The notes under the pieces are model-generated. The model saw only the letters and a list, made by a program, of their open reading frames with translations, did not search any database and was not told the origin of the DNA. A program made the translations under genes and the position numbers. 32,000 nt of DNA, from positions 5,370,001-5,402,000 of the forward strand of contig NC_010628.1 in the NCBI RefSeq assembly GCF_000020025.1, in the 5' to 3' direction. Source of the stretch: Nostoc punctiforme PCC 73102 (GTDB lineage: Bacteria > Cyanobacteriota > Cyanobacteriia > Cyanobacteriales > Nostocaceae). Each line of letters begins with the position of its first letter. The first letter of the stretch is position 1. This document shows positions 6,495-27,665 of the stretch, one piece after another.

Positions 6495-6499
6495 TATCT

Positions 6500-8356: not shown

Positions 8357-9015
8357 TTAAATTTACCTTTATGACTCAGCCTTTATTTTAAAAAATCTTT
8401 CAAACAATTATTTATTTAAAAAAATAAATCTAGTAAAATATCAACATTTTTTTACTATTGTTTAAACTCAATTATCCAAAGTATTTTTACTTTACTTTCC
8501 CCTAATAAACTTTGATAAAATATAACTTTACATACGCAAAAGCATTTACTTGCCTTAACCTCACCTCTGTTTTTACATTTGTATTTCTACTTTGAGCAGA
8601 GTAATTTATACGATATATTTGAAAAGATTATATACTTTTCACCTAGTCGTTCTACATCCAGCAAAATTTCAGGAAAGATAGATACAGTAAAAGATACAGC
8701 CCCCGCTCTTCCCTCGCCAGATAGAATTAGCCTTGGTTATGAATATCGTTTTGTAAATGTGATAAAGAAATTATAAAGCATAAGTGGCTGCTCAAGTAAT
8801 TCAGTAAACTTTAATTGCTCAAAAGCCTAGATAAATATTTGTTAAGTTTTTTAAAACTTTCTTATCATAAACTATTATAGTAATTTATATTGCCAGGAAC
8901 GCCAAGCTTTCCTATGCTTAATTTGGAAGTGTTTTCTTAGCTATAAGATCAGGCTCTCCCCGTCAAAAAATTCAAACGACAGTACAGATTGCATTAATTT
9001 TGTAGGAGTTCTGCG
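8357..9015. promoter_or_regulatory. 659-bp AT-rich divergent control region between ndhF4 (-) and ccmK (+)
   Basis: This is the longest non-coding stretch in the window and is flanked by divergent operon starts. GGAG at 9005-9008 lies 7 nt before the ccmK ATG. The region contains a perfect 16-bp palindrome AAGTTTT-TT-AAAACTT (8844-8859) and TTA-N7-TAA strings (8842-8854, 8771-8783). No transcription start site can be assigned from sequence alone. Confidence 0.5.
8844..8859. promoter_or_regulatory. Perfect palindrome AAGTTTTTTAAAACTT, candidate transcription-factor site upstream of ccmK
   Basis: A 7-bp inverted repeat with a 2-nt spacer lies 157 nt upstream of the ccmK ATG. It shares AGTTTT/AAAACT half-sites with the palindrome upstream of the LysR gene (14102-14124). 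The AT-rich background makes a chance occurrence plausible. Confidence 0.25.
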
Positions 9016-9324
9016 ATGCCAATTGCAGTTGGAATGATTGAAACGAAAGGCTTTCCAGCAGTTGTGGAAGCTGCTGATGCGATGGTGAAAGCCGCCCGTG
9101 TCACCTTAGTAGGGTATGAAAAAATTGGTAGCGCTCGCGTCACCGTGATAGTTCGGGGAGATGTATCGGAAGTACAAGCTTCTGTAGCTGCTGGGGTTGA
9201 AGCCGCGAAAAGAGTTTTTGGTGGTGAAGTGTTGTCCACTCACATCATTGCTCGTCCTCACGAGAACCTGGAATACGTCTTGCCGATTCGTTACACAGAA
9301 GCTGTGGAACAGTTCCGTACCTAA
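9016..9324 (+). CDS. ccmK: Carboxysome shell protein CcmK (BMC-H hexamer), short paralogue
   Basis: 102 aa. The canonical BMC domain is present: [70 protein letters not shown]. Confidence 0.95.
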
Positions 9325-9414
9325 AAGCTGTTTAAAAAAAGTAATTAACGCTCTTTGCTTTTTTGAGCATCACTTTTGTCCAAAGCTAAAAACTTTAAAT
9401 AGGGATTAAAACTA

Positions 9415-9759
9415 ATGTCAATTGCAGTGGGAATGGTTGAAACGCTGGGCTTTCCAGCAGTTGTGGAAGCTGCTGATGCGATGGTGAAAGCTGCTCGTGT
9501 GACTCTAGTCGGCTATGAAAAAATCGGCAGTGGTCGAGTTACAGTAATTGTCCGGGGTGACGTTTCGGAAGTACAAGCTTCCGTAGCCGCAGGTGTTGAA
9601 TCAGTAAAGCGAGTCAATGGTGGACAAGTGCTGTCTACTCACATCATTGCTCGTCCTCACGAAAACTTGGAATACGTCCTACCAATTCGTTATACAGAAG
9701 ACGTAGAACAATTCCGGGAAAATGTGAACGCAATTCGTCCTTTTGGTAGAAGACCGTAA
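9415..9759 (+). CDS. ccmK: Carboxysome shell protein CcmK (BMC-H hexamer), paralogue with C-terminal extension
   Basis: 114 aa. It is nearly identical to the upstream CcmK over ~95 aa and adds a C-terminal tail, ..[15 protein letters not shown]. The arrangement resembles the short-then-long ccmK pair known in other beta-cyanobacteria. Confidence 0.95.
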
Positions 9760-9765
9760 TTTTTA

Positions 9766-10068
9766 ATGCAAGTCGCCAAAGTTCGCGGCACAGTAGTTAG
9801 CACCCAAAAAGATCCAAGTCTCAGAGGTGTGAAACTACTGTTGTTACAATTTGTAGATGAAGACGGAAACATCCTCCCACAATATGAGGTAGCAGCAGAT
9901 AGTGTGGGAGCAGGTGTAGATGAGTGGGTACTTGTCAGTCGTGGCAGTGTTGCTCGTCAAGTTATTGGCAACGAACAGCGACCACTAGATGCAGTGGTAG
10001 TAGCGATCATAGATACAATTTATGTTGAAGATCGCATGATTTACAGCAAAAAAGATCAATATCGATAG
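9766..10068 (+). CDS. ccmL: Carboxysome vertex protein CcmL (EutN/CcmL pentamer)
   Basis: 100 aa: MQVAKVRGTVVSTQKDPSLRGVKLLLLQFVDEDG..DEWVLVSRGS.ARQ. It starts 6 nt after the ccmK stop. Confidence 0.9.
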   Translation: MQVAKVRGTVVSTQKDPSLRGVKLLLLQFVDEDGNILPQYEVAADSVGAGVDEWVLVSRGSVARQVIGNEQRPLDAVVVAIIDTIYVEDRMIYSKKDQYR

Positions 10069-10135
10069 TCATTAGTCATTGGTCATTGGTCATTAGTGAA
10101 TAACAAAGGACAAATGACAACGAACAAATGACAAT
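10067..10135. repeat. Heptamer (STRR2-like) arrays in the ccmL-ccmM spacer, partly inverted
   Basis: agtcatt agtcatt ggtcatt ggtcatt is followed by gacaaat gacaacg aacaaat gacaata. GGTCATT is the complement type of AATGACA, so the two halves can pair partially. Confidence 0.75.
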
Positions 10136-10152
10136 ATAGGAGGAATCTCGCA

Positions 10153-12162
10153 ATGGCAGTCCGCAGCACGGCAGCACCCCCAACTCCGTGGTCAAGGAAT
10201 TTAGCTGAACCCAAAATCCATCAAACTGCTTTTGTACATTCATTCTCCAATCTGATTGGGGATGTAAGAATAGGTGCAAATGTAATCGTTGCTCCGGGGA
10301 CTACGATTAGAGCGGATGAAGGCACACCTTTTTATCTTGGTGAAAACACTAATATTCAAGATGGTGTGGTCATTCATGGGTTAGAGCAAGGTCGAGTAAT
10401 TGGCGATGACCAAGAGAAATACTCGGTATGGGTAGGTAAAAATGCTTGCATTACCCACATGGCTCTAATTCACGGGCCAGCTTATGTAGGCGATAATTCC
10501 TTCATTGGCTTTCGCTCTACAGTGTTTAATGCCAGGGTAGGTGCAGGTTGCATCGTGATGATGCACGCTTTGATTCAAGACGTAGAAATTCCCGCAGGTA
10601 AATATGTACCTTCGGGAGCGGTAATTACTAGCCAGCAGCAAGCTGACCGCTTGCCAGATGTGCAAGATCAGGATAAGGAATTTGCTCATCATGTGGTTGG
10701 AATTAATCAGGCGCTACGAGCTGGTTATCTTTGTGCTGCGGATAGCAAATGTATAGCACCCATTCGGGATGAGAACGCTAAATCTTATACAGGTAATGGT
10801 ATTACTGTTTTAGAGTTGGAAAGGAGTAGTGAAGTGGCGAGCAATAGCTTGGGTGCAGAAACAATAGAGCAGTTGCGCTATCTATTGGAACAAGGGTATA
10901 AAATTGGTACAGAACACGTAGATCAGAGACGGTTCCGCACGGGTTCTTGGACTAGCTGCCAACCAATTGAACCGAGATCCATCGGTGAAGCGATCGCAGC
11001 ATTAGAAAGCTGTGTAAGTGACCATAGCGGCGAATATGTCCGCCTTTTTGGTATTGATAAAGATAGACGACGTGTGTTAGAGAGCATCATCCAACGCCCG
11101 GATGGTGATTTTAAACCAGCTACCAATTTTAAGGCTCCGGCTAGTAATCATAGCAATGGCAGCTACAGCAATAATGGTAACGGTAACGGCTCTAGCAGTG
11201 GCAAAGTCAATGGCGAAACTGTAGAGCAAATCCGCCAACTTTTGGCAGGTGGTTATAAAATTGGCATGGAACACGTAGACGAGCGCCGTTTCCGTACTGG
11301 TTCCTGGACTAGCTGCAAGCCAATTGAAGCAACTTCCATAAATCAAGTAATTTCCGGCTTGGAAGAATGTATAGAAAGCCATCAAGGTGAGTATGTGCGT
11401 TTAATAGGCATTGATACCAAAGCCAAACGGCGGGTATTAGAAACGATTATCCAACGTCCAAATGGTCAAGTAGCCTCCTTTGGTAGTCAGAAATCATCAT
11501 TTACTAGCAGTGGAAGCTCTGGAAGTGCTACGGCAACAGCTACCAGTAATCGTTTGAGTACTGAAGTAGTAGACCAACTCCGGCAATTATTGGCTGGTGG
11601 GTATAAGATTAGTCTTGAACACGTAGACGAACGACGGTTCCGTACAGGTTCCTGGACGAGTACCGGTCAAATTCAAGCCTCCTCAGAAAGAGAAGCGATC
11701 GCAGCTATAGAAGGACACCTTGGCGAATACCAAGGGGAATATGTACGCTTAATTGGTATTGACCCCAAAGCCAAGCGTCGGGTATTAGAAACGATTATCC
11801 AACGTCCAAATGGTCAAGTAGCCTCCTCTGGCAGTCAGAAATCATTTACTAGCAGTGCGCCTTCTGCTACAGCAACAGCTACAGCAACAGCTACCAGTAC
11901 CCGCTTGAGTAGTGAAGTTGTAGACCAACTCCGACAATTATTGGCTGGCGGCTCTAAAATTAGCCTTGAACACGTAGACCAACGGCGGTTCCGTACTGGT
12001 TCTTGGACTAGTACCGGTCAGATTCAAGCCTCCTCAGAAAGAGAAGCGATCGCAGCCGTAGAAGGACACCTTGGCGAATACCAAGGAGAATATGTGCGCT
12101 TAATTGGTATTGACCCCAAAGCCAAGCGTCGGGTATTAGAAACGATCATCCAACGTCCATAA
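10153..12162 (+). CDS. ccmM: Carboxysome assembly protein CcmM: N-terminal gamma-carbonic-anhydrase-like domain plus four RbcS-like (SSUL) modules
   Basis: 669 aa. The N-terminal left-handed beta-helix region is ..[50 protein letters not shown]... It is followed by four repeats of ..[23 protein letters not shown]...I......I..... .GEYVRL.GID...RRVLE.IIQRP (aa ~236-316, 355-436, 470-552, 587-669). Confidence 0.95.
10818..10836 (+). promoter_or_regulatory. Internal Shine-Dalgarno-like element plus in-frame GTG: candidate start of a short, SSUL-only CcmM isoform
   Basis: GGAAAGGAG (10818-10826) is followed by a 7-nt spacer and then GTG (10834-10836 = Val228, in frame). This is 8 codons before the first SSUL module. 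Confidence 0.45.
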
Positions 12163-12181
12163 CAGTGAGTGAGGAGTAGGT

Positions 12182-12201
12182 AGACGCGATTAATCGCGTC
12201 T
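12182..12201. repeat. Perfect 20-bp palindrome AGACGCGATTAATCGCGTCT (hairpin repeat family)
   Basis: It lies 20 nt after the ccmM stop and belongs to the same family as 2593-2615. It could act as an intra-operon attenuator or RNA stabiliser, but no T-run follows it. Confidence 0.6.
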
Positions 12202-12280
12202 GTACGGGAGTAGAGAATAGGAAATTTTAATATCCACCACTTACTACTCCCTAGAACCGGGAGTAGGTAATTTTAATATT

Positions 12281-12322
12281 CCCCATTCCCCATTCCCCAT
12301 TCCTCATTCCCCATTCCCCATT
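12281..12322 (+). repeat. (CCCCATT)6 heptamer tandem array in the ccmM-ccmN spacer
   Basis: Six consecutive units (one is CCTCATT) end 24 nt before the ccmN ATG. They are the complement of the GGGGAAT units at 6414-6446. Confidence 0.85.
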
Positions 12323-12346
12323 CCGGCTTCCGAGGTTAAAATTTCC

Positions 12347-13120
12347 ATGTCTGTGCTGTCACTGCGCCTCAGCAATAACTTTGATTCTTACATTAGTGGT
12401 GAGGTGACTATTCATCCAAGCGCAGTACTTGCACCTGGCGTGATCCTTCAAGCAGCTGAAAACAGCAAGATCGTAATTGGGCCAGGGGTCTGTATTGGCA
12501 TGGGAGCCATTCTCCAAGTCCATGAAGGAACCCTAGAGGTAGAAGCGGGGGCAAACCTGGGAGCCGGTTTTTTGATGGTTGGCAAGGGCAAAATTGGAGC
12601 AAATGCTTGTATTGGTTCAGCAACAACAGTTTTTAACTATTCAGTTGAACCTGGACAAGTAGTTCCACCTGGATCGATTTTAGGAGACACCAGTCGGCAA
12701 ATTGCTCAAACAACGCAGCCGGAACCATCTACAAATAACTCCACGGCTACAAGTGTGCCACCGCAGAAGGAAGAAGAAAATGGCTCAGGAGGAGTTAAGG
12801 AAAAGGTAAGTTCCTCAACTAACTTCTCAGCTGCGGCTTTTGTGGATTTCAAACAAAATAAGTCGATTTCTTATTTTAAATCTCCAGCCACTCCTGAAAG
12901 CCAGCCTCCTCCCTTAGAGGAACCCGCGAAGGATGCTGAATCCCCCTTGCAAGAAGCCGTTCAAGAGCCTACAAAATCTGACTCAGACCCCAATCAGCTA
13001 CCTACAGAATCCCCTAACGGTTTCGGAACTCAGATTTATGGACAAGGGAGCATAAGCAGACTGTTGACCACATTGTTTCCTCATAGACAATCTTTGAGTG
13101 ACCCAAACTCTGACGATTAG
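12347..13120 (+). CDS. ccmN: Carboxysome assembly protein CcmN (hexapeptide-repeat domain, disordered linker, C-terminal encapsulation peptide)
   Basis: 257 aa. The N-terminal beta-helix repeats are ..VTIHPSAVLAPGVILQAAENSKIVIGPGVCIGMGAILQV.. They are followed by a ~110-aa P/E/S/T-rich linker and a terminal amphipathic segment, GQGSISRLLTTLFPHRQSL. The gene sits between ccmM and ccmO. Confidence 0.85.
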   Translation: MSVLSLRLSNNFDSYISGEVTIHPSAVLAPGVILQAAENSKIVIGPGVCIGMGAILQVHEGTLEVEAGANLGAGFLMVGKGKIGANACIGSATTVFNYSVEPGQVVPPGSILGDTSRQIAQTTQPEPSTNNSTATSVPPQKEEENGSGGVKEKVSSSTNFSAAAFVDFKQNKSISYFKSPATPESQPPPLEEPAKDAESPLQEAVQEPTKSDSDPNQLPTESPNGFGTQIYGQGSISRLLTTLFPHRQSLSDPNSDD

Positions 13121-13177
13121 TCTGAGTAAGTGTTAATTGTAAGTTGTCGGCTTTGTGATTATCTGGGTAAGTTCATA

Positions 13178-13975
13178 ATGGAAACATCTAATCAACGGTC
13201 TCTGAAAGCCATCGAAGGAACGAGTCATCGAGACACCTTCCAGGACACTGCTTTAGGTTTAGTTTCTACCCGCAGCTTTCCAGCAATAGTTGGGACGGCG
13301 GATATGATGCTGAAATCAGCAGGAGTTCACCTAGTTGGGTATGAAAAAATTGGTGGCGGATATTGTACTGCGATCGTTCGGGGTGGAATTGCTGACGTGC
13401 GTCTGGCAGTAGAATCTGGTGTGCAAACAGCTGAACAGTTTGGTCAATTAGTTTCTAGCTTGGTGATTCCTCGGCCTTATCCAAACCTAGATATAGTACT
13501 TCCCATCACAACCCGTTTTACTAAATTGATGGAGGAGGGCAATTCTAGCCGTCTGAGTAATCAAGCAATTGGTTTGGTAGAAACGCGAGGATTTCCAGCG
13601 ATGGTAGGCGCGTGTGATGCCATGCTCAAAGCTGCTGATGTTCATTTAGCAGCCTACGAAAAAATTGGTGGGGGTTTGTGTACAGCTATTATTCGTGGTT
13701 CCGTAGCAAATGTGGCGGTAGCAGTGGAAGCGGGAATGTTTGAAGCAGAACGCATTGGAGAATTAAATGCAGTGATGGTAATTCCGCGACCACTTGACGA
13801 AATGGAGCAAACCTTACCATTAGCAAGTTGCTGGATAGAAACACAACAGCCTTTAAACTTACCAGTCAATATTAAAGAACAAGTTGCCGAAATAGAAGTG
13901 CTAAGATTACCAGATTTAACTAAGCTACCTACAAAAATTGCAGAAGTTGTAGAAGAATTATGGAATGATGAATGA
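13178..13975 (+). CDS. ccmO: Carboxysome shell protein CcmO (tandem BMC domains)
   Basis: Two BMC domains are present: [45 protein letters not shown].. and AIGLVETRGFPAMVGACDAMLKAADVHLAAYEKIGGGLCTAIIRG... The ORF track begins at GTG 13130. I prefer ATG 13178 (METSNQ..) because the 16 extra codons (MLIVSCRLCDYLGKFI) do not look like part of a shell protein. Confidence 0.85.
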   Translation: METSNQRSLKAIEGTSHRDTFQDTALGLVSTRSFPAIVGTADMMLKSAGVHLVGYEKIGGGYCTAIVRGGIADVRLAVESGVQTAEQFGQLVSSLVIPRPYPNLDIVLPITTRFTKLMEEGNSSRLSNQAIGLVETRGFPAMVGACDAMLKAADVHLAAYEKIGGGLCTAIIRGSVANVAVAVEAGMFEAERIGELNAVMVIPRPLDEMEQTLPLASCWIETQQPLNLPVNIKEQVAEIEVLRLPDLTKLPTKIAEVVEELWNDE

Positions 13976-14005
13976 TGATAGATGAATTTGGGAAAATCAT
14001 CATTC
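13970..14005 (+). terminator. Hairpin overlapping the ccmO stop (weak terminator candidate)
   Basis: GAATGATGAT-(16 nt)-ATCATCATTC forms a perfect 10-bp stem, but it is AT-rich and no clear T-run follows. Confidence 0.3.
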
Positions 14006-14101
14006 ATCGGGAAGTGGAAGGAATCTTACGCTTTTCTTGTTGTTATGATAATAGCTTCTTCAATCTATAAATAAAATACCTTTATTTTAATAGAAATAAT
14101 A

Positions 14102-14124
14102 GAGTTTTATCTATAATAAAACTC
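14102..14124. promoter_or_regulatory. LTTR-box-like palindrome GAGTTTTA-N7-TAAAACTC upstream of the LysR gene
   Basis: A perfect 8-bp inverted repeat containing TTA-N7-TAA ends 93 nt upstream of the TTG start at 14217. A second AT palindrome, TAAAATA-CCTT-TATTTTA, lies at 14072-14089. Confidence 0.35.
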
Positions 14125-14216
14125 GTAAGTTTCTATTGGTATCGCTATACCATTTGCAACTGTTCAGTTAATACTAGTTTTATATCGATGAATAGCTATA
14201 TAGAGGAGAATCACCT

Positions 14217-15158
14217 TTGAAACAAGCGACGCTGCACCAGTTAAAGGTATTCGAGGCTGCGGCACGGCACAGTAGCTTTACGCGGGCTGCTGAGGAATTG
14301 TTTCTCACCCAACCTACCGTTTCTATGCAAATCAAGCAACTCACAAAATCCGTAGGGTTGCCATTATTTGAGCAAGTGGGGAAACGGTTGTATCTCACCG
14401 AAGCAGGACGAGAATTATTTGCCACTTGTCGGCAGATTTTTGAAAATATAGCCCAGTATGAAATGAAGGTGGCAGATTTAAAAGGGCTAAAACAGGGACA
14501 ATTACGCTTGGCAGTGATTACAACAGCAAAATATTTTATCCCACGTTTATTAGGGCCGTTTTGCGAACTTTATCCAGGGATTGATATCTCTCTGCAAGTA
14601 ACGAATCACGAACAAATTTTGGAACGGATGAGTCAGAACCTGGACGACTTATATATTATGAGTCAAGTTCCAGACAATATGGATGTGAATTGTGAGGCAT
14701 TTTTAGAAAATCCTTTGATAGTCTTTGCACCAGTTAATCATCCGTTATCCAAGGAAAAAAATATTCCGATCCAACGCCTATCTAACCAACCTTTTATTAT
14801 GCGAGAACCAGGTTCAGGAACTCGCCGCGCCGTGCAAAGCCTATTTGAAGAACAAGGGGTGACAGTAAAAGTCAAGCTGGAATTGGGAAGTAACGAAGCA
14901 ATTAAACAAGCGATCGCAGGTGGTTTAGGAATTTCGGTTTTATCTCGTCATACTTTACTATTAGACGCTTCAGATTTTAGCATTTTAGATGTCCAACACT
15001 TTCCCATTCAGCGACATTGGTACATGGTTTACCCCGCAGGCAAGCAGTTATCTATCGTCGCTCGTGCCTATTATGACTATCTCCTGGCTGCGGCAAGGAA
15101 TTTTGTAGATCAAAACACTGATACCACTGCTAGTAGCCTTGAACCAACTCACGGGTAA
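14217..15158 (+). CDS. LysR-type transcriptional regulator, CbbR/CmpR/NdhR(CcmR) subfamily
   Basis: 313 aa. The N-terminal wHTH is LHQLKVFEAAARHSSFTRAAEELFLTQPTVSMQIKQLTKSVGLPLFEQVGKRLYLTEAG, and the rest is LysR substrate-binding-like. The TTG start is preceded by GAGGAG (14203-14208). The gene is directly downstream of the ccm operon. I could not decide from sequence alone which named paralogue (CmpR-like or NdhR-like) it is. Confidence 0.85.
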   Translation: MKQATLHQLKVFEAAARHSSFTRAAEELFLTQPTVSMQIKQLTKSVGLPLFEQVGKRLYLTEAGRELFATCRQIFENIAQYEMKVADLKGLKQGQLRLAVITTAKYFIPRLLGPFCELYPGIDISLQVTNHEQILERMSQNLDDLYIMSQVPDNMDVNCEAFLENPLIVFAPVNHPLSKEKNIPIQRLSNQPFIMREPGSGTRRAVQSLFEEQGVTVKVKLELGSNEAIKQAIAGGLGISVLSRHTLLLDASDFSILDVQHFPIQRHWYMVYPAGKQLSIVARAYYDYLLAAARNFVDQNTDTTASSLEPTHG

Positions 15159-17150: not shown

Positions 17151-18153
17151 AGAGTTGTCGGGAAATAAAAGATAAGTGAGGCAATGCTGGTCTTGTAATT
17201 GGGATTCTCTTAAGCAGCCATCAAGTAGAAGTTCCATAATCCTGCTGCGGTCAGCATCAAATGGTCATCAAAGTTTTCAATCCGATTACGATAAATGACA
17301 CTGGCGGCGTTGTAGCGCTTCACACCAGCAAAGGCATTTTCGCAAACTACACGGGATTGACTCAATTGACGATTCTCCGTTTTTTGAAGGTCACTTAACT
17401 TGCCCCCTTTGGGCTTTTTGTGAGGAAGATGGAGATTGTCATACTGCTTCTGTAATCCCTGAAAGCCCGAGTCTACTTCAATCGGAATTTCATCAGGCAC
17501 ACTACCTGCAATGTCATCTTCGTCATGAAAACGTTTGTCATGCAGTTTGCCTTCTCGTGCTTTGCTTAAGATCAAGACCCGTTTGGTTTCATCAACTGCC
17601 GCCAAGTGTTTACGCGTATGACGTTTCTTTTTACCGGAGTAATTCTGTTGTTGTTGTTCTCTTTCTTGAGGTCGCGCAATTGGGCGTTCTGTCCCATCAA
17701 TCATCACTCGTTGCACTCCTGGAAAGCGTGACAAAAATGCTTCAATGCTTTCGAGATGGCGTTCCGGCAGCGCCATCTTCTGTCCCAAAGCCGCTTCTAA
17801 TATTGGCTGCAATCGATGCATCCACTCATGTGCCTGGGAGCGATGCATATCAAAGAGCAGTCCCGCCACATCGAAGGTCGGATAACATTTGAAATAGAAA
17901 AGGATGAAAAACAATTTGTCTTGGGCTGTAAGTAAGCGGGCTTTGCGTCCTCCACCCAGGCCACGTTGACGAGGCTTGGCCTGTTGAGTATCTAGGTACA
18001 TCGTGGTAAACGTGGGCAAAAGGGCATCAAATGCTTTCCGGTTCAACCCAGTTAATGCCCTCAACAGTCGGTCTTGCTTCAGCGCACCTTCAATATTCAG
18101 CATCATTCTTCCCTACCACTGCTGTCTATTCTCTCTTATTTCCCGACAAGTCT
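17151..18153 (-). mobile_element. Insertion sequence, 1003 bp, IS5-superfamily-like (DDE_Tnp_4 / Harbinger-type transposase), apparently intact
   Basis: The terminal inverted repeats are AGAGTTGTCGGGAAATAAAAGATAA (17151-17175) and the reverse complement of 18129-18153 (AGACTTGTCGGGAAATAAGAGAGAA), matching at about 22 of 25 positions. A 3-bp direct repeat AAT sits on both flanks (17148-17150 and 18154-18156). The element holds a single uninterrupted transposase ORF. Confidence 0.8.
17210..18106 (-). CDS. DDE transposase (DDE_Tnp_4-type)
   Basis: 298 aa. An N-terminal HTH-like region is followed by a catalytic triad pattern: ..VMIDGTERPIARP.. (D), ..IEVDSGFQGL.. (D), ..RVVCENAFAGVKRY.. (E). 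Confidence 0.85.
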   Translation of the reverse strand: MMLNIEGALKQDRLLRALTGLNRKAFDALLPTFTTMYLDTQQAKPRQRGLGGGRKARLLTAQDKLFFILFYFKCYPTFDVAGLLFDMHRSQAHEWMHRLQPILEAALGQKMALPERHLESIEAFLSRFPGVQRVMIDGTERPIARPQEREQQQQNYSGKKKRHTRKHLAAVDETKRVLILSKAREGKLHDKRFHDEDDIAGSVPDEIPIEVDSGFQGLQKQYDNLHLPHKKPKGGKLSDLQKTENRQLSQSRVVCENAFAGVKRYNAASVIYRNRIENFDDHLMLTAAGLWNFYLMAA

Positions 18154-22032: not shown

Positions 22033-22362
22033 ATGAAGTTTTTTGTGCCAGCAGCTAAGGATGATATCAAAGCAGAGCAGGTGTATAATGCTTTTGCTCG
22101 GTCTGTCAAAGCACCAATAAACGAAAAGCGTATTTGGAAGTTACAGTGGCGCGATCGCGAAATTGATATGGAATGCGAGGTAGGTAAACCCTTACCATCC
22201 TCTTATCAAACTGGGAAAGAGCTAGTTATGGCAATCTTTGAGTGCGAAAACCTTTATAAAATTTGTACTCTTACCCGTGGAGGAGTAAAGGGAGAACCTA
22301 TCTTGGTTGGCAAAAACTCTGTATCCTCAGCAACATATTTTTCAGATAATGTACATAACTGA
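22033..22362 (+). CDS. Hypothetical protein
   Basis: 109-aa ORF with an ATG start and no motif I recognise. It is co-oriented with the upstream SDR gene. Confidence 0.45.
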   Translation: MKFFVPAAKDDIKAEQVYNAFARSVKAPINEKRIWKLQWRDREIDMECEVGKPLPSSYQTGKELVMAIFECENLYKICTLTRGGVKGEPILVGKNSVSSATYFSDNVHN

Positions 22363-22705: not shown

Positions 22706-22742
22706 ACGCAATTTGAACTCAGTGTTTAAGTTGCGTATTTTT
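22706..22742 (+). terminator. Intrinsic-terminator-like hairpin 84 nt upstream of the first fimbrial-subunit-like gene
   Basis: ACGCAATTTGAAC-TCAGT-GTTTAAGTTGCGT forms a 13-bp stem (2 G-U pairs) and is followed by A-TTTTT (22738-22742). Confidence 0.5.
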
Positions 22743-22825
22743 GCTGTCGATATTGTATTTTTTGATAGATATTATGAAAATATGCACTGATACAGGATAA
22801 AGCTGAGTCATCAGGTAACTTCTTT

Positions 22826-23305
22826 ATGTTTTACCGTCTAGCGTTAATCTCTAGCCTGGTGCTGGCAAGTGCATTCGCTCTAAATCAAGCTGCGATCGCT
22901 CAAAGTGCAGATGTTCCCTTCAGTGGAACAGTTCCAGCTGAAGCTACCTTTAATGCTCCTGCGCCTGGCACTGCTGAACCAACTATTTCTAGCAGTTCTG
23001 GTGGAATTCCGACAAAGTTTGAATCACAAACTCCTGCGACTATGGGCGTGCAAACTAGCACACCTGCCACTATCTCTGTTTCACCCCCCAGATTTGTATC
23101 TGGCCCTAGTGCCGATCCTTCTGGGACAACGCACATCGGATTTTTAAAATTTGGTTCGGCTAACCTTCGCAGTGATGTCGGTGGTGGGAGTGCAACTTTA
23201 CCAGCAGGTAGTACCAATTTAGAGGTGGGTTTGCTGGTAGAGCGACCTGTAGCATTTACGCCGGGAATTTATACCTACGTTGTTACTTTAACGATCGCAC
23301 CATAG
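22826..23305 (+). CDS. Secreted fimbrial-subunit-like protein 1 (spore-coat-U/sigma-fimbria-like, Cys-free)
   Basis: 159 aa. It has a 25-aa signal peptide (..LNQAAIA|QSADVPF), a G/S/T/P-rich beta-type sequence and the C-terminus ..PGIYTYVVTLTIAP. It is a paralogue of the next gene. Confidence 0.65.
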   Translation: MFYRLALISSLVLASAFALNQAAIAQSADVPFSGTVPAEATFNAPAPGTAEPTISSSSGGIPTKFESQTPATMGVQTSTPATISVSPPRFVSGPSADPSGTTHIGFLKFGSANLRSDVGGGSATLPAGSTNLEVGLLVERPVAFTPGIYTYVVTLTIAP

Positions 23306-23346
23306 CTGTTTTCTGCAACCCTTATTTATTTGAGAAGGATTTAAAA

Positions 23347-23820
23347 ATGATTCGTCGTTCTTTATTAACTATTGCTTTGATAATTGTTGGTTCTGCTGCT
23401 CTTGCACCCAAAACAATGGCACAAACGGCTGATGTACCTTTTACAGCAAATGTCGGTGGTGTCTGCAACTTCGATCAAATCACCCCTGGTAAATTGGGAC
23501 TCAACCAACAGACTAACCCAACTTCACTAGCAGGAGGATATTCTGGAGGACAATTTGGTAAGGTTTTTGTTAGCTGTAACCAAGGTGCCAGAGTGAGTAT
23601 ATCTAAGCCACAGCAGACCGGAGGCCCTAGTTTTACACCCATTAACTCTGTTGGGATAATCAACTCACCTTTTGGCAGTACGAGTTCTCAGGGTGGTAGT
23701 CCTGTATCACTACCCTCTGGTAGCGGTTTGCCTTTGGATATAGACATGATAGTAGATAAGGGCAGTCCCCTTGTTCCTGGAAACTACAGCTATGTAACAA
23801 CATTGACTATCGTGCCATAG
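23347..23820 (+). CDS. Secreted fimbrial-subunit-like protein 2 (spore-coat-U/sigma-fimbria-like, one Cys pair)
   Basis: 157 aa. It has a 25-aa signal peptide (..APKTMA|QTADVPF), C40 and C77, and the C-terminus ..PGNYSYVTTLTIVP. GAAGGA lies upstream of the ATG. Confidence 0.65.
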   Translation: MIRRSLLTIALIIVGSAALAPKTMAQTADVPFTANVGGVCNFDQITPGKLGLNQQTNPTSLAGGYSGGQFGKVFVSCNQGARVSISKPQQTGGPSFTPINSVGIINSPFGSTSSQGGSPVSLPSGSGLPLDIDMIVDKGSPLVPGNYSYVTTLTIVP

Positions 23821-23871
23821 TCTAAAACTTTCCCAGTTTTCCTTCAATTTGGTTGAGAAAAATAGTTATTG

Positions 23872-23919
23872 AATATCTTGTCGCTAGAGAGTAAATCTTC
23901 AAGCGGCAAGATATTTTTC
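23872..23919 (+). terminator. Intrinsic-terminator-like hairpin between the subunit genes and the chaperone gene
   Basis: AATATCTTGTCGC-(18 nt)-GCGGCAAGATATT forms a 13-bp stem (one U-G pair) that runs into TTTTTCT. Confidence 0.5.
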
Positions 23920-23995
23920 TCATGACCGATAAATAAAATAAATCTCTTTTTGGGAACTATAAATCAGAAATTAACTTTACAATCCTGCCATAGTT

Positions 23996-24829
23996 ATGAA
24001 TATGCTCAAAAGTAATTGGCGCTCTCTAGCTGCTGTTAGTGCTGGCTTATTCGCCCTAGTTTTGTTTCCTGCTGCTGCTAAAGCACAAATGAGTGTTTCT
24101 CCGCTAGTGATTGAAGCCAAAGCGGAACGCGGACAAGCCCAAGGAATGATTACGATTTCCAATACTAGTAAAACCCCCTCTCGCATTCGCATCTATGCTG
24201 AACCTTTTACCTATAGCCGCGATGCAGGGTTTCAAACCTTATCCTCTAGTCCCAGTGACTTGACGAAATATCTGCAATTCTCACCGCGTGAATTGACTGT
24301 CAAACCAGGAGAAGTTCGCCGGGTACGCCTCATCAGTCGCTTGGCTCCTAATTTACCAGATGGCGAATATCGAGCGGTCGTATTTAATGAAACTCTTACT
24401 GAATCGAAAGATGCTGCTGGTAATAACATTACTTTAGTCGCACGAATTGGCGTGACATTCTATGTTAGAAAAGGCAATCTTTCTCCCCAACTAGCAATTG
24501 ATAGTGCCAGTTTTAACCCAGAGCAGAAACAGATTCAACTTTTAGTTCGTAATAGTGGCCAAGCAACTGTTCTCCCCAGTTTAAATTGGACGTTACGCCA
24601 AGGGCAAACTATTGTCAAAACTGGGCAGATAGATACTAATGCTGTAGTCGCAAATAGCGATCGCAATTTTTTATTAAATTACCCCAATAAAGACCAACCA
24701 GCCTTGAATCCTGGTCAATATCAGCTAAGTGGTGAGTTATTCTGGGGTGAAGACAATAATAAAAGTAAGTTGCCCTTCAATGTAAATATTACTATTCCTA
24801 GACAAACAGCTGCATCACAGAAAAAGTAG
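23996..24829 (+). CDS. Periplasmic PapD-like fimbrial chaperone candidate
   Basis: 277 aa. A signal peptide (..FPAAAKA|QMS) is followed by VSPLVIEAKAERGQAQGMITISNTSKTPSRIRIYAEPF, which has the strand pattern of chaperone N-terminal Ig domains. The size fits two Ig-like domains. The assignment is pattern-level only. Confidence 0.55.
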   Translation: MNMLKSNWRSLAAVSAGLFALVLFPAAAKAQMSVSPLVIEAKAERGQAQGMITISNTSKTPSRIRIYAEPFTYSRDAGFQTLSSSPSDLTKYLQFSPRELTVKPGEVRRVRLISRLAPNLPDGEYRAVVFNETLTESKDAAGNNITLVARIGVTFYVRKGNLSPQLAIDSASFNPEQKQIQLLVRNSGQATVLPSLNWTLRQGQTIVKTGQIDTNAVVANSDRNFLLNYPNKDQPALNPGQYQLSGELFWGEDNNKSKLPFNVNITIPRQTAASQKK

Positions 24830-24971
24830 CTTGTGTAATAATTCGTAATTCTTAATTAATAAATTCAGATTAAATCTGGCATCTTTAGTCTGATTTTGGA
24901 GAATTGGTATTACTGTAAAATACAGCATTAATATCGATAATTTTGTTTGGTACTTGGGAATTATATGTTGG

Positions 24972-25003
24972 TAGAGATGTTGCAATGCAATGTCTCTATT
25001 TCT
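24972..25003 (+). terminator. Hairpin (GTAGAGA..TCTCTA family) between the chaperone and usher-like genes
   Basis: TAGAGATGTTGC-AAT-GCAATGTCTCTA forms 12 bp including 2 G-U pairs and is followed by TTTCT. The 3-nt loop and its membership of a repeat family make its function uncertain. Confidence 0.3.
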
Positions 25004-25034
25004 ATAGGAAATTTTACAGAGAAGTTAAAAATTT

Positions 25035-27665
25035 GTGCAACTTTGGCTATTAACTAGTAGAGGCAAATGTCTGCTAGCTGCGATCGCTCTTATCTATCAA
25101 ATTATTATCACCCCAGCTAAGGCAGATACGCCTGCAATTTCCAATCTACAAACACCTACAAGTACCGAATTAGGAAAGGATTCAGACTTTAAAGTTTTTC
25201 CCATAGGATTGAATGTCGGCAACCGCAATGTCAATTCTAGCGTTTTGGTACGTGGTCAAGAAGATGGTTCCCAAGCAATTGATTTTCCAAATTGGCTGTT
25301 ACCTTATGATGCCGTCGTTCAAGGTTTGAAATTAAATGTCATCACTTTACCAGACGGTCAATTAGAAGTGCGATCGCTTAGTTTTGTGACTCGCATCAAC
25401 CCAACAAAACTTCGCACCGATCCAGAATTAGGATTAGTCTTTACAATTCAAGATTTACAAACTCTCTTTGGCGTAGGGGCAAAATTTGACATCAATGAAT
25501 ACGCCATTATTTTAGATGTTCCAGGAGTAGATCAATCCAGTGGCAAACTAGCAGAAACAGAAACTCCAATTCAACTAGAAGGATTACCACACATTACACC
25601 TAAAAAGTTTAGTGTTGCGGCAGTTGAACAGAAGGTAAATGCTAGCGGTGGTGCTACCAGATCGACAAGTTATAGAGGCGATTTTATTGCTGTTGGTAGT
25701 GCTTTGGGTGGTTCGTGGTTCATCCGCACCGATCAACCAAATTTACAAAATCCGCAAACTTGGAATATTGCTGAAGCGCAATTTTTGCGACAAACTAATT
25801 CATCTGATTATTTTGTGGGTTCCCAGCCAACTTTTTGGCAAACTCAAGGAACAGGAGACTATTGGGGGTTTACATCCATTCAACGACAGGGCTTTGTACC
25901 ACCTCAACCCTTTGGCGGTGGTTCTTCCGATCCTCGCCAACGTTTACAAGCAGATGCTATTGGACGCACAATTGCTGGTAAAGCTGAACCAGGTACATTA
26001 GTGCGCTTAGTACAAGGTTTTAGCGATCGCATAATTGCCGAAATTTTAGTTGATTCTTCTGGCATTTACCGCTTTGAAAATATTAAAAGTCAAAATCAAT
26101 TTTTGGCAAATAATTATCGCGTTTTGCTGTATCCCCAAGGGCGACTTACCGCCCAACCAGAAATTCAACAGGCTAATTTTTCTACAGTCCCAGGACAATT
26201 ACCAGCAGGTGCTTCAGGATTAATCGTTTCTGGCGGGTTACGACGGGATTCTTTGGGAAATCAAAGTCTGTTGGGCAACTTTTCTGAGTTTCGGGGAGGA
26301 ATTGCTGGACGTTGGGGTTTATCGGAAAATCTGACAGTAGGCTTAGGTGGAGTGTATGACGAATCGCCTAAAGCCTTAGCAGAATTATTTTGGCGTGCTA
26401 GAAACTTACCTTTGCAGGTAGCAGTTTCAGCACTGACGGGTAATAAGTGGGATGTGAATACAGATATTCGCTACGATCCAGCGTCTAACTTGAGTGCTAT
26501 ATTTACCAGCGATCGCTTATCTAGCCGTTTTAATCTAGATTGGCGAGTTTTGCCTCAATTCACTTTATTCGCCAGTAGTGACACGGGTGATGCGACATCT
26601 AGCGGAATGCAATTTAACTTGAGTGGCAAAGATGCCTTTACTTTTGCCCGTATCAGCCTAGATACTAAAAACCGTCTGCGCTGGAATTTGCTGCAACGTC
26701 TTGGAAAACTAGAATTAACGCAACGCGGTAACGAAATCAGCACTTTGTCGGAACTGAATTACAACTTATCTAAAAACCGCTTTTCTAGTAGTGGCAACTC
26801 ACTACTGTTAAATTATGAAACACAGAATCAAAATCGTAGCGACAGCTTGCTAAGTGTGAGTTGGCGCTATCGTTCACAACAACAGGCGATTGATGGTAGC
26901 TATCAGTGGGAAGCACAGTTAGGTTATGGCGTTGGTTCTCAGGGTAATGGAATACTAGCCACATTGTCAACAACAGTTTTACCCGGTTTGCTATTACGGG
27001 CACGTTATCAAGGTGTGTCGCCGAGTTCCGATGAAGCAACTTTCAGCATAGATTTAGCTTCTAGCCTGAATTTACAAGGAGGTATTAGTCCAGGCGATCG
27101 CCGTTCAAATTACTTCCGTACACAAGGCGGACTGTTGATTAAGCCATTTTTTGACCGGAACAATAATGGTAAACAGGATAGAGGCGAAGAAGTTTATACA
27201 GATAATGCTGATTTGTTATTGACTTTGAACAATAAACCTCTTAAGTCATTTTTGCCACAAATCCAGGGCAATCGCACTTTAGTAAGAATGCCTCCTGGTA
27301 TTTATCGCCTCGACCTCGATCCAGCAGGTTTACCCCCTGATTGGCAGCCTATGGTTGAGTCTACAGCCGTTGATGTAGTTGCTGGGAGTTATACCCCTGT
27401 GATGATTCCCTTAATTCGTTCTTACGCACGATCGGGGGTAGTCACGGATACTCAAGGTCAAGCGATCGCAGGCGCACGGGTAGAAGCCATACAACCAGAT
27501 CAAACAACTCGGCGTTTTTCTGTCACCAACGGGGCTGGAGTCTATTATTTAGAAGGCTTGTCACAGGGTAAATACACTCTGCAAATCAACGGTAAATCTG
27601 CTGGTAGCTTGAAATTAGAAGAGTCTTCTGAACCATTCCAAGAGCTTAATTTGCAACAGCCGTGA
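25035..27665 (+). CDS. Large secreted beta-rich outer-membrane protein, usher-like candidate with C-terminal Ig-like (SdrD-B-like and carboxypeptidase-regulatory-like) domains
   Basis: 876 aa with a GTG start and a signal peptide (..IITPAKA|DTP). The N-terminal region ..FPIGLNVGNRNVNSSVLVRGQEDGSQAIDFPNWLLPYDAVVQGLKLNV.. resembles the usher N-domain pattern. A long stretch of alternating beta-strand-like sequence follows. The C-terminus contains ..FFDRNNNGKQDRGEEVY.. and ..GVVTDTQGQAIAGARVEA..GAGVYYLEGLSQGKYTLQING... I am confident it is a CDS. The usher function is inference. Confidence 0.5.
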   Translation: MQLWLLTSRGKCLLAAIALIYQIIITPAKADTPAISNLQTPTSTELGKDSDFKVFPIGLNVGNRNVNSSVLVRGQEDGSQAIDFPNWLLPYDAVVQGLKLNVITLPDGQLEVRSLSFVTRINPTKLRTDPELGLVFTIQDLQTLFGVGAKFDINEYAIILDVPGVDQSSGKLAETETPIQLEGLPHITPKKFSVAAVEQKVNASGGATRSTSYRGDFIAVGSALGGSWFIRTDQPNLQNPQTWNIAEAQFLRQTNSSDYFVGSQPTFWQTQGTGDYWGFTSIQRQGFVPPQPFGGGSSDPRQRLQADAIGRTIAGKAEPGTLVRLVQGFSDRIIAEILVDSSGIYRFENIKSQNQFLANNYRVLLYPQGRLTAQPEIQQANFSTVPGQLPAGASGLIVSGGLRRDSLGNQSLLGNFSEFRGGIAGRWGLSENLTVGLGGVYDESPKALAELFWRARNLPLQVAVSALTGNKWDVNTDIRYDPASNLSAIFTSDRLSSRFNLDWRVLPQFTLFASSDTGDATSSGMQFNLSGKDAFTFARISLDTKNRLRWNLLQRLGKLELTQRGNEISTLSELNYNLSKNRFSSSGNSLLLNYETQNQNRSDSLLSVSWRYRSQQQAIDGSYQWEAQLGYGVGSQGNGILATLSTTVLPGLLLRARYQGVSPSSDEATFSIDLASSLNLQGGISPGDRRSNYFRTQGGLLIKPFFDRNNNGKQDRGEEVYTDNADLLLTLNNKPLKSFLPQIQGNRTLVRMPPGIYRLDLDPAGLPPDWQPMVESTAVDVVAGSYTPVMIPLIRSYARSGVVTDTQGQAIAGARVEAIQPDQTTRRFSVTNGAGVYYLEGLSQGKYTLQINGKSAGSLKLEESSEPFQELNLQQP

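Follow-up and report, generated by a model that had tools for sequence, protein, structure and literature searches.

Cyanobacterial chaperone-usher (CU) clusters have been described in Synechocystis (CccS/CccP/Slr0019, also AdhA/ChpA/UshA) and in Nodularia, and are proposed to act in surface adhesion or in building the cell surface (10.1101/130278, PMC4390875, PMC5853447); they were defined by significant matches to PF05229, PF00345 and PF00577 (PMC4390875, PMC5853447). The order subunits, chaperone, usher is found in the archaic (sigma) pili Csu of Acinetobacter (CsuA/B, CsuC, CsuD) and CupE of Pseudomonas, and the alternative (alpha) CU pathway, to which EcpB of the E. coli common pilus and CfaA of CFA/I belong, was reported only from beta- and gamma-proteobacteria (PMC4654587). 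We identified in Nostoc punctiforme PCC 73102 a cluster that has the three component types of the Synechocystis and Nodularia clusters and the gene order of Csu and CupE, but whose products, in contrast to those of these clusters and of Csu and CupE, have no significant SCPU, PapD_N or Usher match, which sets it apart from its cyanobacterial counterparts by the published Pfam criteria. The gene arrangement differs as well, the usher gene being first in order in Nodularia and unlinked in Synechocystis. The first-pass annotation had correctly named slr1667/slr1668 as studied cyanobacterial relatives, although these belong, by the published criteria, to a different, Pfam-visible family, and the present cluster appears to be distinct from the CccS/CccP/Slr0019 type.

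The cluster occupies positions 22826-27665 of the window (the whole stretch of DNA that was analysed, 32,000 nt) and consists of four + strand open reading frames, here named g1 to g4, which are accompanied by several candidate regulatory elements:

22706..22746, + strand: terminator-like hairpin and T-run, 13-bp stem (consensus scan, pattern match only)
22747..22775, + strand: promoter-like -35/-10 pair TCGATA-17-TATTAT, ~50 nt 5' of the g1 start codon (9/12 matches)
22826-23305, + strand: g1, 159 aa (ACC82680/B2JA03)
23347-23820, + strand: g2, 157 aa (ACC82681/B2JA04)
23874..23922, + strand: intrinsic-terminator-like hairpin between g2 and g3, 40 nt, -18.9 kcal/mol, then UUUUUCU
23996-24829, + strand: g3, 277 aa (ACC82682/B2JA05)
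24972..24998, + strand: stable hairpin between g3 and g4, ~12 bp stem then a U-rich stretch (folding)
25035-27665, + strand: g4, 876 aa, GTG start (presumably ACC82683, from adjacency)

The gene calls of all four frames are identical in independent public assemblies, with g3 100% identical to ACC82682/B2JA05, and the ORF list gives exactly the gaps of 41, 175 and 205 nt noted in the first-pass annotation. We consider it likely that g1 to g4 constitute a single operon, which would encode a very divergent CU-type surface-fibre assembly system of a cyanobacterial lineage; the CU-type interpretation is supported by structure and profile comparisons, not by HMMs. The hairpin at 22706..22746 would close the preceding transcription unit and so delimit the cluster on its 5' side. 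The promoter-like pair is weak evidence, because shuffled sequence is expected to contain at least as many such sites as the region does, and the upstream scan found no CRP-type site 5' of g1, in contrast to slr1667.

None of the four proteins matched PF00345, PF02753, PF00577 or PF05229, even domain by domain or in precomputed faint matches, and no NCBIfam CU model was significant for g1-g4. Among the domains for which an hmmscan had been suggested, CarboxypepD_reg was indeed found in g4, whereas PapD, Usher and SCPU were absent from all four proteins, so that neither the chaperone (PF00345/PF02753) nor the usher (PF00577) could be recognised by Pfam. The same holds for the relatives: no PapD match occurs among 120 listed g3 homologues and no Usher match among 120 listed g4 homologues, and the putative usher itself lies far below the Usher HMM threshold.

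The gene neighbourhood is nevertheless strongly conserved. Of 80 related loci, 73 have a g4 homologue downstream of the chaperone gene in the same orientation, and 65 have subunit-like ORFs upstream of it. Only three families are co-conserved: the chaperone, in 80/80 loci; the subunits, in 70 loci with 139 ORFs; and the usher, in 69. The four genes are thus conserved together. Because g4 homologues and subunit ORFs recur around the chaperone while the flanking genes of the window do not (these are common to only 2 of the 80 loci), the cluster is no chance arrangement. A gene for a two-domain tip adhesin, such as CsuE in the Csu system, is not co-conserved with the cluster. Our literature search found no expression, localisation or phenotype data on the cluster.

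The two first genes are, judged from their sequences, paralogues (BLASTP, 31% identity, E=7e-18). As had been described, both have signal peptides at residues 1-25, which here end in AxA; Q[ST]ADVPF comes directly after the signal peptide in each, and both share the C-terminus PGxYxYVxTLTIxP. g1 is predicted to be a Cys-less pilin-like subunit, with an N-terminal amphipathic strand (QSADVPFSGTV, residues 26-36) and a C-terminal strand (PGIYTYVVTLTIAP), and g2 a Cys-pair pilin-like subunit, with a candidate donor strand (QTADVPFTANV, residues 26-36), a GG linker next to it, Cys40 and Cys77, and a C-terminal strand (PGNYSYVTTLTIVP). The UniProt label of g2 is 'Spore coat protein U domain-containing'. 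The subunit family comprises 591 clusters at 50% identity, and in 148 representatives we observed Ala at position -1 of the signal peptidase site (143/148), an alternation of V/A/I, V/I/L, F, G/A and V/I/L at positions 28/30/32/34/36, a Cys pair (138/148) and a distance of 11-12 residues from a conserved Tyr to the chain end (141/148). This layout matches the published description of the archaic pilin CupE1, namely donor strand, Gly-rich linker and conserved disulfide (PMC10104325). Like this family, Csu and CupE have small pilins exported by Sec, in which a donor strand at the N-terminus is followed by a short linker rich in Gly, and in which the Cys pair and the C-terminal G-x-Y...T-V/L-T strand are conserved; the g1 type differs in having no Cys pair. 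The suggested link to archaic SCPU-type subunits is supported only indirectly, since 9/148 relatives matched Pfam SCPU (best E 8.5e-6; one relative reached 17.3 bits, cutoff 22.4, in register), whereas g1 and g2 themselves had no match. The subunit profiles matched no solved pilin significantly and showed no similarity to EcpA or FimA, with a weak alignment of their C-terminal strand to that of Caf1. The Cys-pair type, represented by g2, is the universal subunit and probably the major one, and the Cys-less type of g1, which is first in order in 32/51 loci with motif-bearing subunits, is proposed to be accessory.

In g3, the string VSPLVIEAKAERGQAQGMITISNTSKTPSRIRIYAEPF, in which the strand pattern of PapD-like N-domains had been seen, is present as quoted. 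The protein has a signal peptide (1-30) and two domains (~31-160 and ~161-270). In domain 1, strand D1 has a kink at P97, strand F1 carries R126, and hydrophobic residues alternate along strand G1 from I145 to V157. In the confident AF2 model (pLDDT 84, pTM 0.76) strand D1 is interrupted at P97. Foldseek against the PDB retrieved CU chaperones of all classes, namely CsuC, CfaA, FimC, Caf1M, YadV and CupB2 (probability 1.00, E 6e-10 to 1e-7), CsuC and CfaA being among the top structural matches, although the best single one was a Gram-positive WxL-interacting protein; the g3 model has the two-domain chaperone fold common to Fim/Pap/Caf1, and is ~40 residues longer than CsuC. The family profile aligned with EcpB over 127 columns (hhalign, 88.9%, E 2.4e-6), but not with classical FimC (0.8%), and EcpB represents the only CU family with such a sequence match. 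A CU-superfamily proline and an arginine specific to non-classical chaperones are regarded as hallmark residues (PMC4654587); EcpB Pro60 and Arg89 align with P97 and R126, the spacing being 29 residues in both proteins, and P97 and R126, the latter being the Arg typical of non-classical chaperones, are invariant in 74 g3 homologues. The EcpB G1 donor residues also align with conserved g3 residues, while g3 has Leu at position 193; the family consensus here is an Arg, the counterpart of the secondary anchor Arg148 in the EcpB alignment. We observed no evident g3 equivalent of the Caf1M basic pair, Arg20 and Lys139, that anchors the subunit carboxylate (PMC4654587). Separate HMM matches to fimbrial chaperones were weak (TcfA, E 0.02; EcpB, E 0.15). 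NCBI and JGI label the protein 'PapD chaperone'. The model and the profile match together support g3 as a periplasmic two-domain Ig-like chaperone of CU type, and so agree with the structural part of the earlier proposal.

The fourth protein contains the strings FFDRNNNGKQDRGEE and GVVTD..GARVEA..GKYTLQING, as quoted in the first-pass annotation, and its AF2 model (pLDDT 80, pTM 0.68) presents, in order, an N-domain, 6 strands, an inserted domain, ~18-20 strands and 2 sandwiches:

Residues ~1-30: signal peptide, predicted
Residues 53-161: N-domain (AF2 model)
Residues 192-285: barrel strands 1-6 (AF2 model)
Residues 309-385: inserted plug-like beta-domain (AF2 model)
Residues 394-679: remaining barrel strands (AF2 model)
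Residues 698-781: C-terminal sandwich 1, weak SdrD_B-like match
Residues 786-870: C-terminal sandwich 2, CarboxypepD_reg

The predicted N-domain and two C-terminal beta modules of g4 are therefore both found in the model. In solved ushers, the plug sits after the sixth barrel strand. All entries at ranks 1-17 of the Foldseek search against the PDB are FimD or PapC (E 1.3e-21 to 8e-10), full-length usher entries aligning across 750-950 columns, whereas porins reached only ~1e-4. CarboxypepD_reg and SdrD_B are the only Pfam domains in g4, its C-terminal domains scoring as these, in contrast to Csu and CupE. The usher identity is based on predicted structure, with TM-scores of only 0.36-0.52, because the g4 profile has no similarity to FimD or EcpC; on this basis, g4 is supported as an usher-like outer-membrane protein with the full usher layout, an architecture common to Fim, Pap and Caf1.

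The hairpin following g2 (folding z = -2.8) is kept with wobble-compatible substitutions in Nostoc-clade loci (L001-L015 and L033), conservation beyond this clade not being demonstrable, and the whole g3-g4 intergenic region also has a folding z of -2.7. Owing to the terminator-like hairpin, transcripts of the subunits are probably more abundant than those of the chaperone and usher, which may contribute to stoichiometric control.

We propose that g1 and g2 would be exported by Sec and cleaved by signal peptidase behind AxA. In the periplasm, g3 would capture each subunit, its G1 strand (I145, L147, A149, I151, V153, F155 and V157) entering the open groove of a presumably incomplete subunit fold and R126 anchoring the C-terminal carboxylate, in the manner that has been reported of CsuC and EcpB, two non-classical chaperones. 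Chaperone-subunit complexes would then dock on g4, with its plugged beta-barrel, N-domain and two C-terminal domains, where the amphipathic strand at the N-terminus of each arriving subunit (xADVPFxxxV) would displace the chaperone strand by donor-strand exchange, a principle common to Fim/Pap/Caf1, and the growing polymer would pass through the barrel and emerge at the cell surface, forming a fibre.

The cluster could instead belong to the known archaic (sigma) family of cyanobacteria, which has SCPU, PapD_N and Usher domains and CccS/CccP/Slr0019 as its type, and be an ordinary member whose sequences have drifted to just below the HMM thresholds. The database labels of g2 (SCPU) and g3 (PapD), the few SCPU matches among the subunit relatives and the similarity of g3 to CsuC agree with this, but we consider it unlikely, since the published clusters have significant matches, all three domains are missing from the window proteins and PapD and Usher from the listed homologues, and the usher is nowhere near threshold. 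Nodularia has both the canonical type (N. spumigena, from the literature) and homologues of this cluster (Nodularia sp. NIES-3585 and N. sphaerocarpa), which hints at two coexisting families. The fold matches could also be misleading: g4 might be an unrelated porin or transporter of the outer membrane that carries Ig-like appendages, g3 some generic Ig-domain protein of the periplasm (WxLIP-like, for example) and g1/g2 unrelated secreted proteins. Such a reading would account for the missing HMM support for the usher, the modest TM-scores, WxLIP as top g3 match and the sole Pfam domains of g4, and is nevertheless very improbable: full-length usher entries span nearly all of g4 with E values ~17 orders of magnitude beyond porins, the inserted domain follows the sixth strand as in solved ushers, g3 matches the EcpB profile and keeps both hallmark residues, Pro and Arg, the three families are strictly co-conserved in canonical CU order, and WxL systems are Gram-positive and have no usher.

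It is likewise unlikely that the CU machinery makes no free-standing pilus and exports g1 and g2 to form a surface layer of non-fimbrial kind, a polyadhesin resembling a capsule, or an adhesin that stays monomeric, or that it modulates type IV pili, as proposed for Synechocystis ChpA/AdhA/UshA. Capsule-like polymers are formed by Caf1 and other simple CU systems that have one or two subunits, and both the weak alignment with the Caf1 C-terminal strand and the missing tip adhesin gene would fit; the Synechocystis system was, in fact, proposed to secrete an adhesin and minor pilins without fimbriae, although this model comes from an unreviewed preprint on the other, Pfam-visible family (10.1101/130278). 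Both subunits, however, have at the N-terminus the conserved amphipathic strand that one would expect in subunits that polymerise, and the CRP-type site of slr1667 is missing here. The CT pilus cluster also encodes a pilin and its pilin-like paralogue, together with a beta-rich protein and a protein of the outer membrane for which an usher-like function was proposed (PMC12397347), but that the present cluster is of this kind is highly improbable: CT pilin is formed by two long beta-hairpins and a C-terminal helix-turn-helix and is heavily O-glycosylated, whereas the C-termini of g1 and g2 carry a beta-strand motif and no helices, the subunit profiles match no CT pilin chain in the PDB, and the O-GlcNAc transferase and methyltransferase genes of that cluster are not co-conserved here.

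We favour, therefore, a divergent CU-type fibre-assembly system, which may have a role in adhesion, sheath or hormogonium biology. The cluster probably represents a new variant of non-classical CU assembly that Pfam and other standard domain searches do not recognise, and the system is conserved in many, mostly filamentous, cyanobacteria and has so far been found only in cyanobacteria.

The first-pass annotation had placed four same-strand open reading frames in a chaperone-usher (CU)-type cluster, i.e. two subunits (g1 and g2), a chaperone (g3) and an usher-like protein (g4), and we found all four on the + strand at exactly the positions proposed, together with every motif quoted for them:

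22826-23305, + strand, g1, candidate subunit, 159 aa (ACC82680, UniProt B2JA03)
23347-23820, + strand, g2, candidate subunit, 157 aa (ACC82681, UniProt B2JA04)
23996-24829, + strand, g3, predicted chaperone, 277 aa (ACC82682, UniProt B2JA05)
25035-27665, + strand, g4, usher-like protein, 876 aa, start codon GTG

The genes are separated by 41 (g1-g2), 175 (g2-g3) and 205 nt (g3-g4), and their calls are identical in independent public assemblies. As suggested, g1 and g2 are paralogues, at 31% identity (E=7e-18). Public annotation of the four genes is uneven and the system is partly annotated: g3 is named 'P pilus assembly protein, chaperone PapD' by NCBI and JGI, g2 is 'Spore coat protein U domain-containing' in UniProt, the name of g4 refers to its carboxypeptidase-regulatory-like domain alone and g1 is 'hypothetical'. 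Our literature searches found no published study of this cluster.

None of the PapD_N, PapD_C, Usher and SCPU families, with which the first-pass annotation had expected its CU reading to be checked, was detected in g1-g4 with Pfam and NCBIfam. With the whole proteins g1-g4, PF00345, PF02753, PF00577, PapC_N and PapC_C gave no match at E<=1, and the CU family HMMs gave none at E<=10 when the domains defined from the AlphaFold2 (AF2) models were scanned singly. CU family HMMs were also absent from the precomputed match tables, faint matches included, and no PapD/Usher-type match occurs among the 120 g3 homologues listed or, likewise, among the 120 g4 homologues listed. Significant domains in g1-g4 are limited to CarboxypepD_reg and SdrD_B, both at the C-terminus of g4, while g3 gave hints of the TcfA fimbrial chaperone (E=0.02, HMM scan) and of EcpB (E=0.15, profile against the PDB). 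The cluster matches no established CU family's HMM definition. For g3 and g4, the CU reading did not hold at the level of HMM similarity; it was borne out by the similarity of their predicted structures to CU chaperones and ushers.

The AF2 model of g3, built from 74 homologues, consists of two all-beta domains (pLDDT 84, pTM 0.76), and a Foldseek search of the PDB with this model retrieved CU chaperones of every class (archaic CsuC; alternative CfaA; classical FimC, Caf1M, YadV, CupB2, DraB and SafB) with probability 1.00 and E-values of 6e-10 to 1e-7. The model predicts a periplasmic chaperone with two Ig-like domains and the PapD-like fold of CU chaperones. In hhalign comparisons, whose targets were derived from actual E. 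coli genes, the g3 family profile matched EcpB (88.9% probability, E 2.4e-6, 127 columns) and had no significant match to FimC (0.8%).

Several hallmark residues have been described in the archaic chaperone CsuC and the alternative chaperone EcpB. The proline that kinks strand D1 (Pro59CsuC, Pro60EcpB) is conserved throughout the CU superfamily, Arg89 (CsuC and EcpB), which holds the subunit C-terminal carboxylate, occurs only in archaic and alternative chaperones, the donor residues of EcpB strand G1 alternate (Ala111, Ala113, Ala115 and Ile117) and the carboxylate anchor is completed by a pair in domain 2 (Arg174/Tyr196CsuC, Arg148/Tyr169EcpB) (Pakharukova et al., PMC4654587). The EcpB numbering was shifted by its 20-residue signal peptide, and with this offset Pro60, Arg89 and the four donor residues are the expected residue types in the precursor. 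In the hhalign alignment, mature EcpB Pro60 corresponds to P97 of g3, Arg89 to R126, and Ala113, Ala115 and Ile117 to L147, A149 and I151, respectively. P97 and R126 are invariant in the homologues (74/74), the distance between proline and arginine is 29 residues in g3 and EcpB alike, and the modelled g3 strand is interrupted at P97 (break at residues 96/99). P97 is the CU-wide D1 proline, and R126 appears to be the arginine of nonclassical chaperones, which would anchor the subunit carboxylate. The strand formed by residues 144-159 of g3 has seven alternating hydrophobic residues. At position 193, aligned with EcpB Arg148, the consensus of the family is Arg and the window protein has Leu193 (codon 193, window 24572-24574); with this residue, subunit binding by the g3 of Nostoc punctiforme PCC 73102 may differ slightly from that of most relatives. 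The EcpB anchor Tyr lies outside the aligned region, and domain 2 of g3 contains the invariant residues R223 and Y242. At the profile level, g3 falls with the nonclassical, i.e. archaic (sigma) and alternative (alpha), pathways.

For g4, an AF2 model in which 75 homologues were used (pLDDT 80, pTM 0.68) has the following parts:

residues 53-161, N-terminal domain
residues 192-285, six long strands
residues 309-385, small inserted beta-domain
residues 394-679, further ~18-20 long strands
residues 698-781 and 786-870, two C-terminal sandwiches

In PapC and FimD, the plug is placed between barrel strands 6 and 7, and the inserted domain of the g4 model is found at this usher-plug position, after strand 6; DSSP assigns ~25-26 strand segments to the model, 24 strands being expected from solved ushers. 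The first 17 ranks of the Foldseek search against the PDB are exclusively FimD or PapC (E 1.3e-21 to 8e-10), with alignments that span 750-950 columns for full-length usher entries and ~530-560 columns for isolated pore entries, and below the ushers come unrelated Ig-repeat proteins (5e-9) and porins (~1e-4). The barrel, the plug, the N-domain and the two C-terminal sandwiches of the model indicate that g4 is an outer-membrane usher. Since hhalign detected no sequence-profile similarity of the g4 profile to FimD or EcpC, this assignment is purely structural. A search of the PDB with the g4 HMM profile likewise returned nothing real, and the designed 'Pizza' repeat proteins among its matches were dismissed as noise.

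Subunits of CU systems have an incomplete Ig fold, whose missing seventh strand is supplied as a donor strand by the chaperone or by the following subunit; g1, g2 and their relatives were examined at the sequence level. The subunit family comprises 591 clusters at 50% identity in an exhaustive profile search, 286 of them at E<=1e-10. In 148 subunit representatives, the signal peptidase site AxA (Ala at -1 in 143/148) is followed by an amphipathic N-terminal strand, in which positions 28, 30, 32, 34 and 36 alternate as V/A/I, V/I/L, F, G/A and V/I/L with polar residues in between, and then by a short linker of small residues. A cysteine pair is present in 138 of the 148 (C40 and C77 in g2), and nine, like g1, are without either cysteine. 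The C-terminal strand, G-x-Y-x-[YF]-x-V-T-[LV]-T, is likewise conserved, with 11-12 residues between its conserved Tyr and the end of the chain in 141/148. This layout is the one reported for the archaic pilin CupE1, in which a donor strand of 13 residues, a GAG linker and the conserved disulfide C41-C85 are found (PMC10104325), and g2 has the cysteine pair of archaic pilins, which would form a disulfide next to the donor strand (PMC10104325, PMC4654587).

The link to SCPU-type subunits proposed in the first-pass annotation was upheld indirectly, for some relatives of g1 and g2 and not for the two proteins themselves, neither of which has an SCPU match at E<=10. SCPU is matched by 9/148 of the representatives (best E 8.5e-6) and is the most frequent family match of the subunit relatives, followed by Fimbrial, MrpH_C and SEF14_adhesin. 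For a subunit from one related locus, the SCPU score is 17.3 bits (cutoff 22.4), and the alignment is in register with the beginning of the SCPU model. The link of g1 and g2 to this family is thus transitive and not direct. No solved pilin was matched significantly by the subunit profiles in the PDB. The subunit profile matched Caf1 weakly, in its C-terminal strand and at a sensible position, and the hhalign comparisons with EcpA and FimA were not significant, the FimA alignment having the N-terminus in register at a probability of 8% only.

Relatives of g3, sought in one genome per species, are present in 186 species-level genomes, from which 80 loci were fetched. Nearly all of these loci come from filamentous cyanobacteria, the sources including Nostocales, Coleofasciculaceae, Symploca, Planktothrix, Leptolyngbya and Plectonema, as well as one MAG labelled Sericytochromatia. 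A g4 homologue lies 3' of the chaperone gene in 73/80 loci, the exceptions being mostly truncated contigs, and subunit-like ORFs lie 5' of it in 65/80. All-against-all clustering of the ORFs returned chaperones (80 loci), subunits (70 loci, 139 ORFs) and ushers (69 loci) as co-conserved families, and no other co-conserved family, two-domain tip adhesins included, was found among the 80 loci. The expectation that subunit, chaperone and usher genes would be clustered in related genomes is therefore confirmed across the 80 loci. The usual order is g1 type, g2 type, chaperone and usher (32 loci), and a Cys-pair subunit occurs alone in 14 loci. The genes that flank g1-g4 in the window are common to two near-identical strains only.

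Subunit and cluster numbers vary in some of these genomes. In a Rivularia locus (L029:2084-5436), six tandem subunit genes, five Cys-pair and one Cys-less, precede the chaperone gene, an array that suggests subunit diversification or antigenic variation. The whole cluster is duplicated in some genomes (fetched loci L023 and L068; L037 and L054; L048 and L049): a Calothrix contig (CAXTCQ010000090; L023 and L068) carries two clusters ~11 kb apart, and Coleofasciculus sp. LEGE 07092 and Mastigocoleus testarum BC008 have two loci each.

Six loci have extra genes between chaperone and usher, which we rejected as parts of the system, being sporadic and consisting of IS elements and a PspA/IM30-domain protein. 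In four loci, from Allocoleopsis, Coleofasciculaceae and two MAGs (labelled Chroococcales and Cyanobacteriota, respectively), the insert encodes a protein of 420-526 aa with no obvious signal peptide, on the same strand as the chaperone and usher genes:

L041:6916-8304, same strand, chaperone-usher insert ORF
L043:2815-4395, same strand, chaperone-usher insert ORF
L057:1380-2645, same strand, chaperone-usher insert ORF
L072:7007-8470, same strand, chaperone-usher insert ORF

A PspA/IM30-like C-terminal domain was found in all of the three copies scanned (L043, L057 and L072; best E 5.4e-9), and this protein may serve that subclade as an accessory or regulatory component, or may be an unrelated insertion. 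In a Symploca locus (L034:7084-10438), chaperone and usher genes are separated by a ~4 kb insertion with an IS630-like two-ORF transposase and two other ORFs, which probably disrupts the operon.

Transcription signals were assessed at the level of patterns only, and three candidates were located around g1 and g2:

22706-22746, terminator-like hairpin 5' of g1 (pattern match)
22747-22775, promoter-like site 5' of g1 (pattern match)
23874-23922, hairpin in the g2-g3 spacer (40 nt, -18.9 kcal/mol), followed by UUUUUCU

The g2-g3 spacer region has a folding z of -2.8, and its hairpin persists in the Nostoc-clade loci, where the substitutions are compatible with wobble pairing, and not clearly beyond them; a stable hairpin is also present in the g3-g4 spacer. 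We suggest attenuation, by which mRNA of the subunits would be favoured over that of the chaperone and the usher; control of this kind is used in CU operons. No CRP-type site like that of slr1667 was found near g1, and matches to it in the window are fewer than expected by chance.

Elsewhere in the window, we observed a carbon-concentrating-mechanism region (3607-15158), unrelated to the CU cluster and with a divergent stretch of low GC (0.33) around 8001-9000, and a few further genes; neither tRNA genes nor Rfam families were found across the whole window:

1852-2553, + strand, Uma2-family putative endonuclease
3607-4737, - strand, chpY
4899-8356, - strand, two NDH-1 antiporter-like subunits
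10153-12162, + strand, ccmM-like protein with RuBisCO small-subunit repeats
13130-13975, + strand, protein with two BMC domains
14217-15158, + strand, LysR regulator
17210-18106, - strand, DDE transposase (DDE_Tnp_4 and HTH_Tnp_4)
22033-22362, + strand, ORF without Pfam match, 109 aa
29862-30158, - strand, ORF without Pfam match, 98 aa
30369-31949, - strand, ORF without Pfam match, 526 aa

Directly 5' of the cluster, the 109-aa ORF does not belong to the system, since its conservation does not go beyond the two closest Nostoc strains.

Other assignments of these genes were weighed against the CU reading. The best single Foldseek match of the g3 model is the Enterococcus faecium WxL-interacting protein (WxLIP) 9i1y (E 3.7e-10), just above CsuC; this entry and 9i25, the WxLIP structures matched by the model, were released in 2026. 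The match points to a two-domain fold shared by CU chaperones and the WxLIP proteins of Gram-positive bacteria. WxL/WxLIP complexes combine a WxLIP with WxL-domain partner proteins in a monoderm cell wall, and we rejected g3 as a member of one given its diderm host, the adjacent usher-like barrel of g4 and the lack of a WxL Pfam domain in g1, g2 and g4. The CT pilus of Microcystis (MrpC) has a pilin with two long beta-hairpins and a C-terminal helix-turn-helix, and an O-GlcNAc transferase and a methyltransferase are encoded in its cluster (PMC12397347). Kinship with it was dismissed, as our subunit profiles match no CT pilin chain in the PDB and no transferase genes are co-conserved with the subunits, chaperone and usher; the CT pilus is a different system.

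CU systems are already known in cyanobacteria: sigma-type clusters, which were recognised through usher Pfam matches, CccS/CccP (slr1667/slr1668) with Slr0019 in Synechocystis, and a cluster in Nodularia. All of these were described via SCPU, PapD_N and Usher domains (PMC4390875, 10.1101/130278, PMC5853447), whereas the g1-g4 cluster fails the three Pfam tests and would therefore escape Pfam-based surveys of cyanobacteria. Nodularia species are also found among the sources of its homologues, which suggests that two CU families may coexist.

The g1-g4 cluster has the structure and organisation of the CU superfamily, together with hallmark residues of nonclassical chaperones, and we consider it likely that the four genes work like a nonclassical chaperone-usher fibre assembly system. 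A bolder reading, to which we give little credence, is that they belong to an unrecognised deep CU clade, so far almost confined to filamentous cyanobacteria, whose fibres are the peritrichous pilus-like structures on Nostoc hormogonia. Hormogonia are piliated all over, yet PilA is found in junctional rings, and pilD mutants still form short pili (PMC4390875). Linking g1-g4 to hormogonium pili is speculation; if this were true, the fibres would be distinct from the junctional type IV PilA rings and would aid surface attachment or plant infection.

The significance of the cluster is potential and not established. Cyanobacterial CU systems as such would not surprise specialists; a widespread lineage that Pfam models do not see is a useful lead. 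Few bacterial adhesins are understood as well as CU pili, whose surveys depend on Pfam usher and chaperone models, so that a lineage fully invisible to these models means that CU distribution outside proteobacteria is probably underestimated. Since the chaperone keeps the nonclassical hallmark residues, the family would be a useful outgroup for the evolution of donor-strand complementation, and in N. punctiforme, a tractable symbiotic model, the four genes would offer a handle on long-standing questions about surface fibres other than type IV pili.
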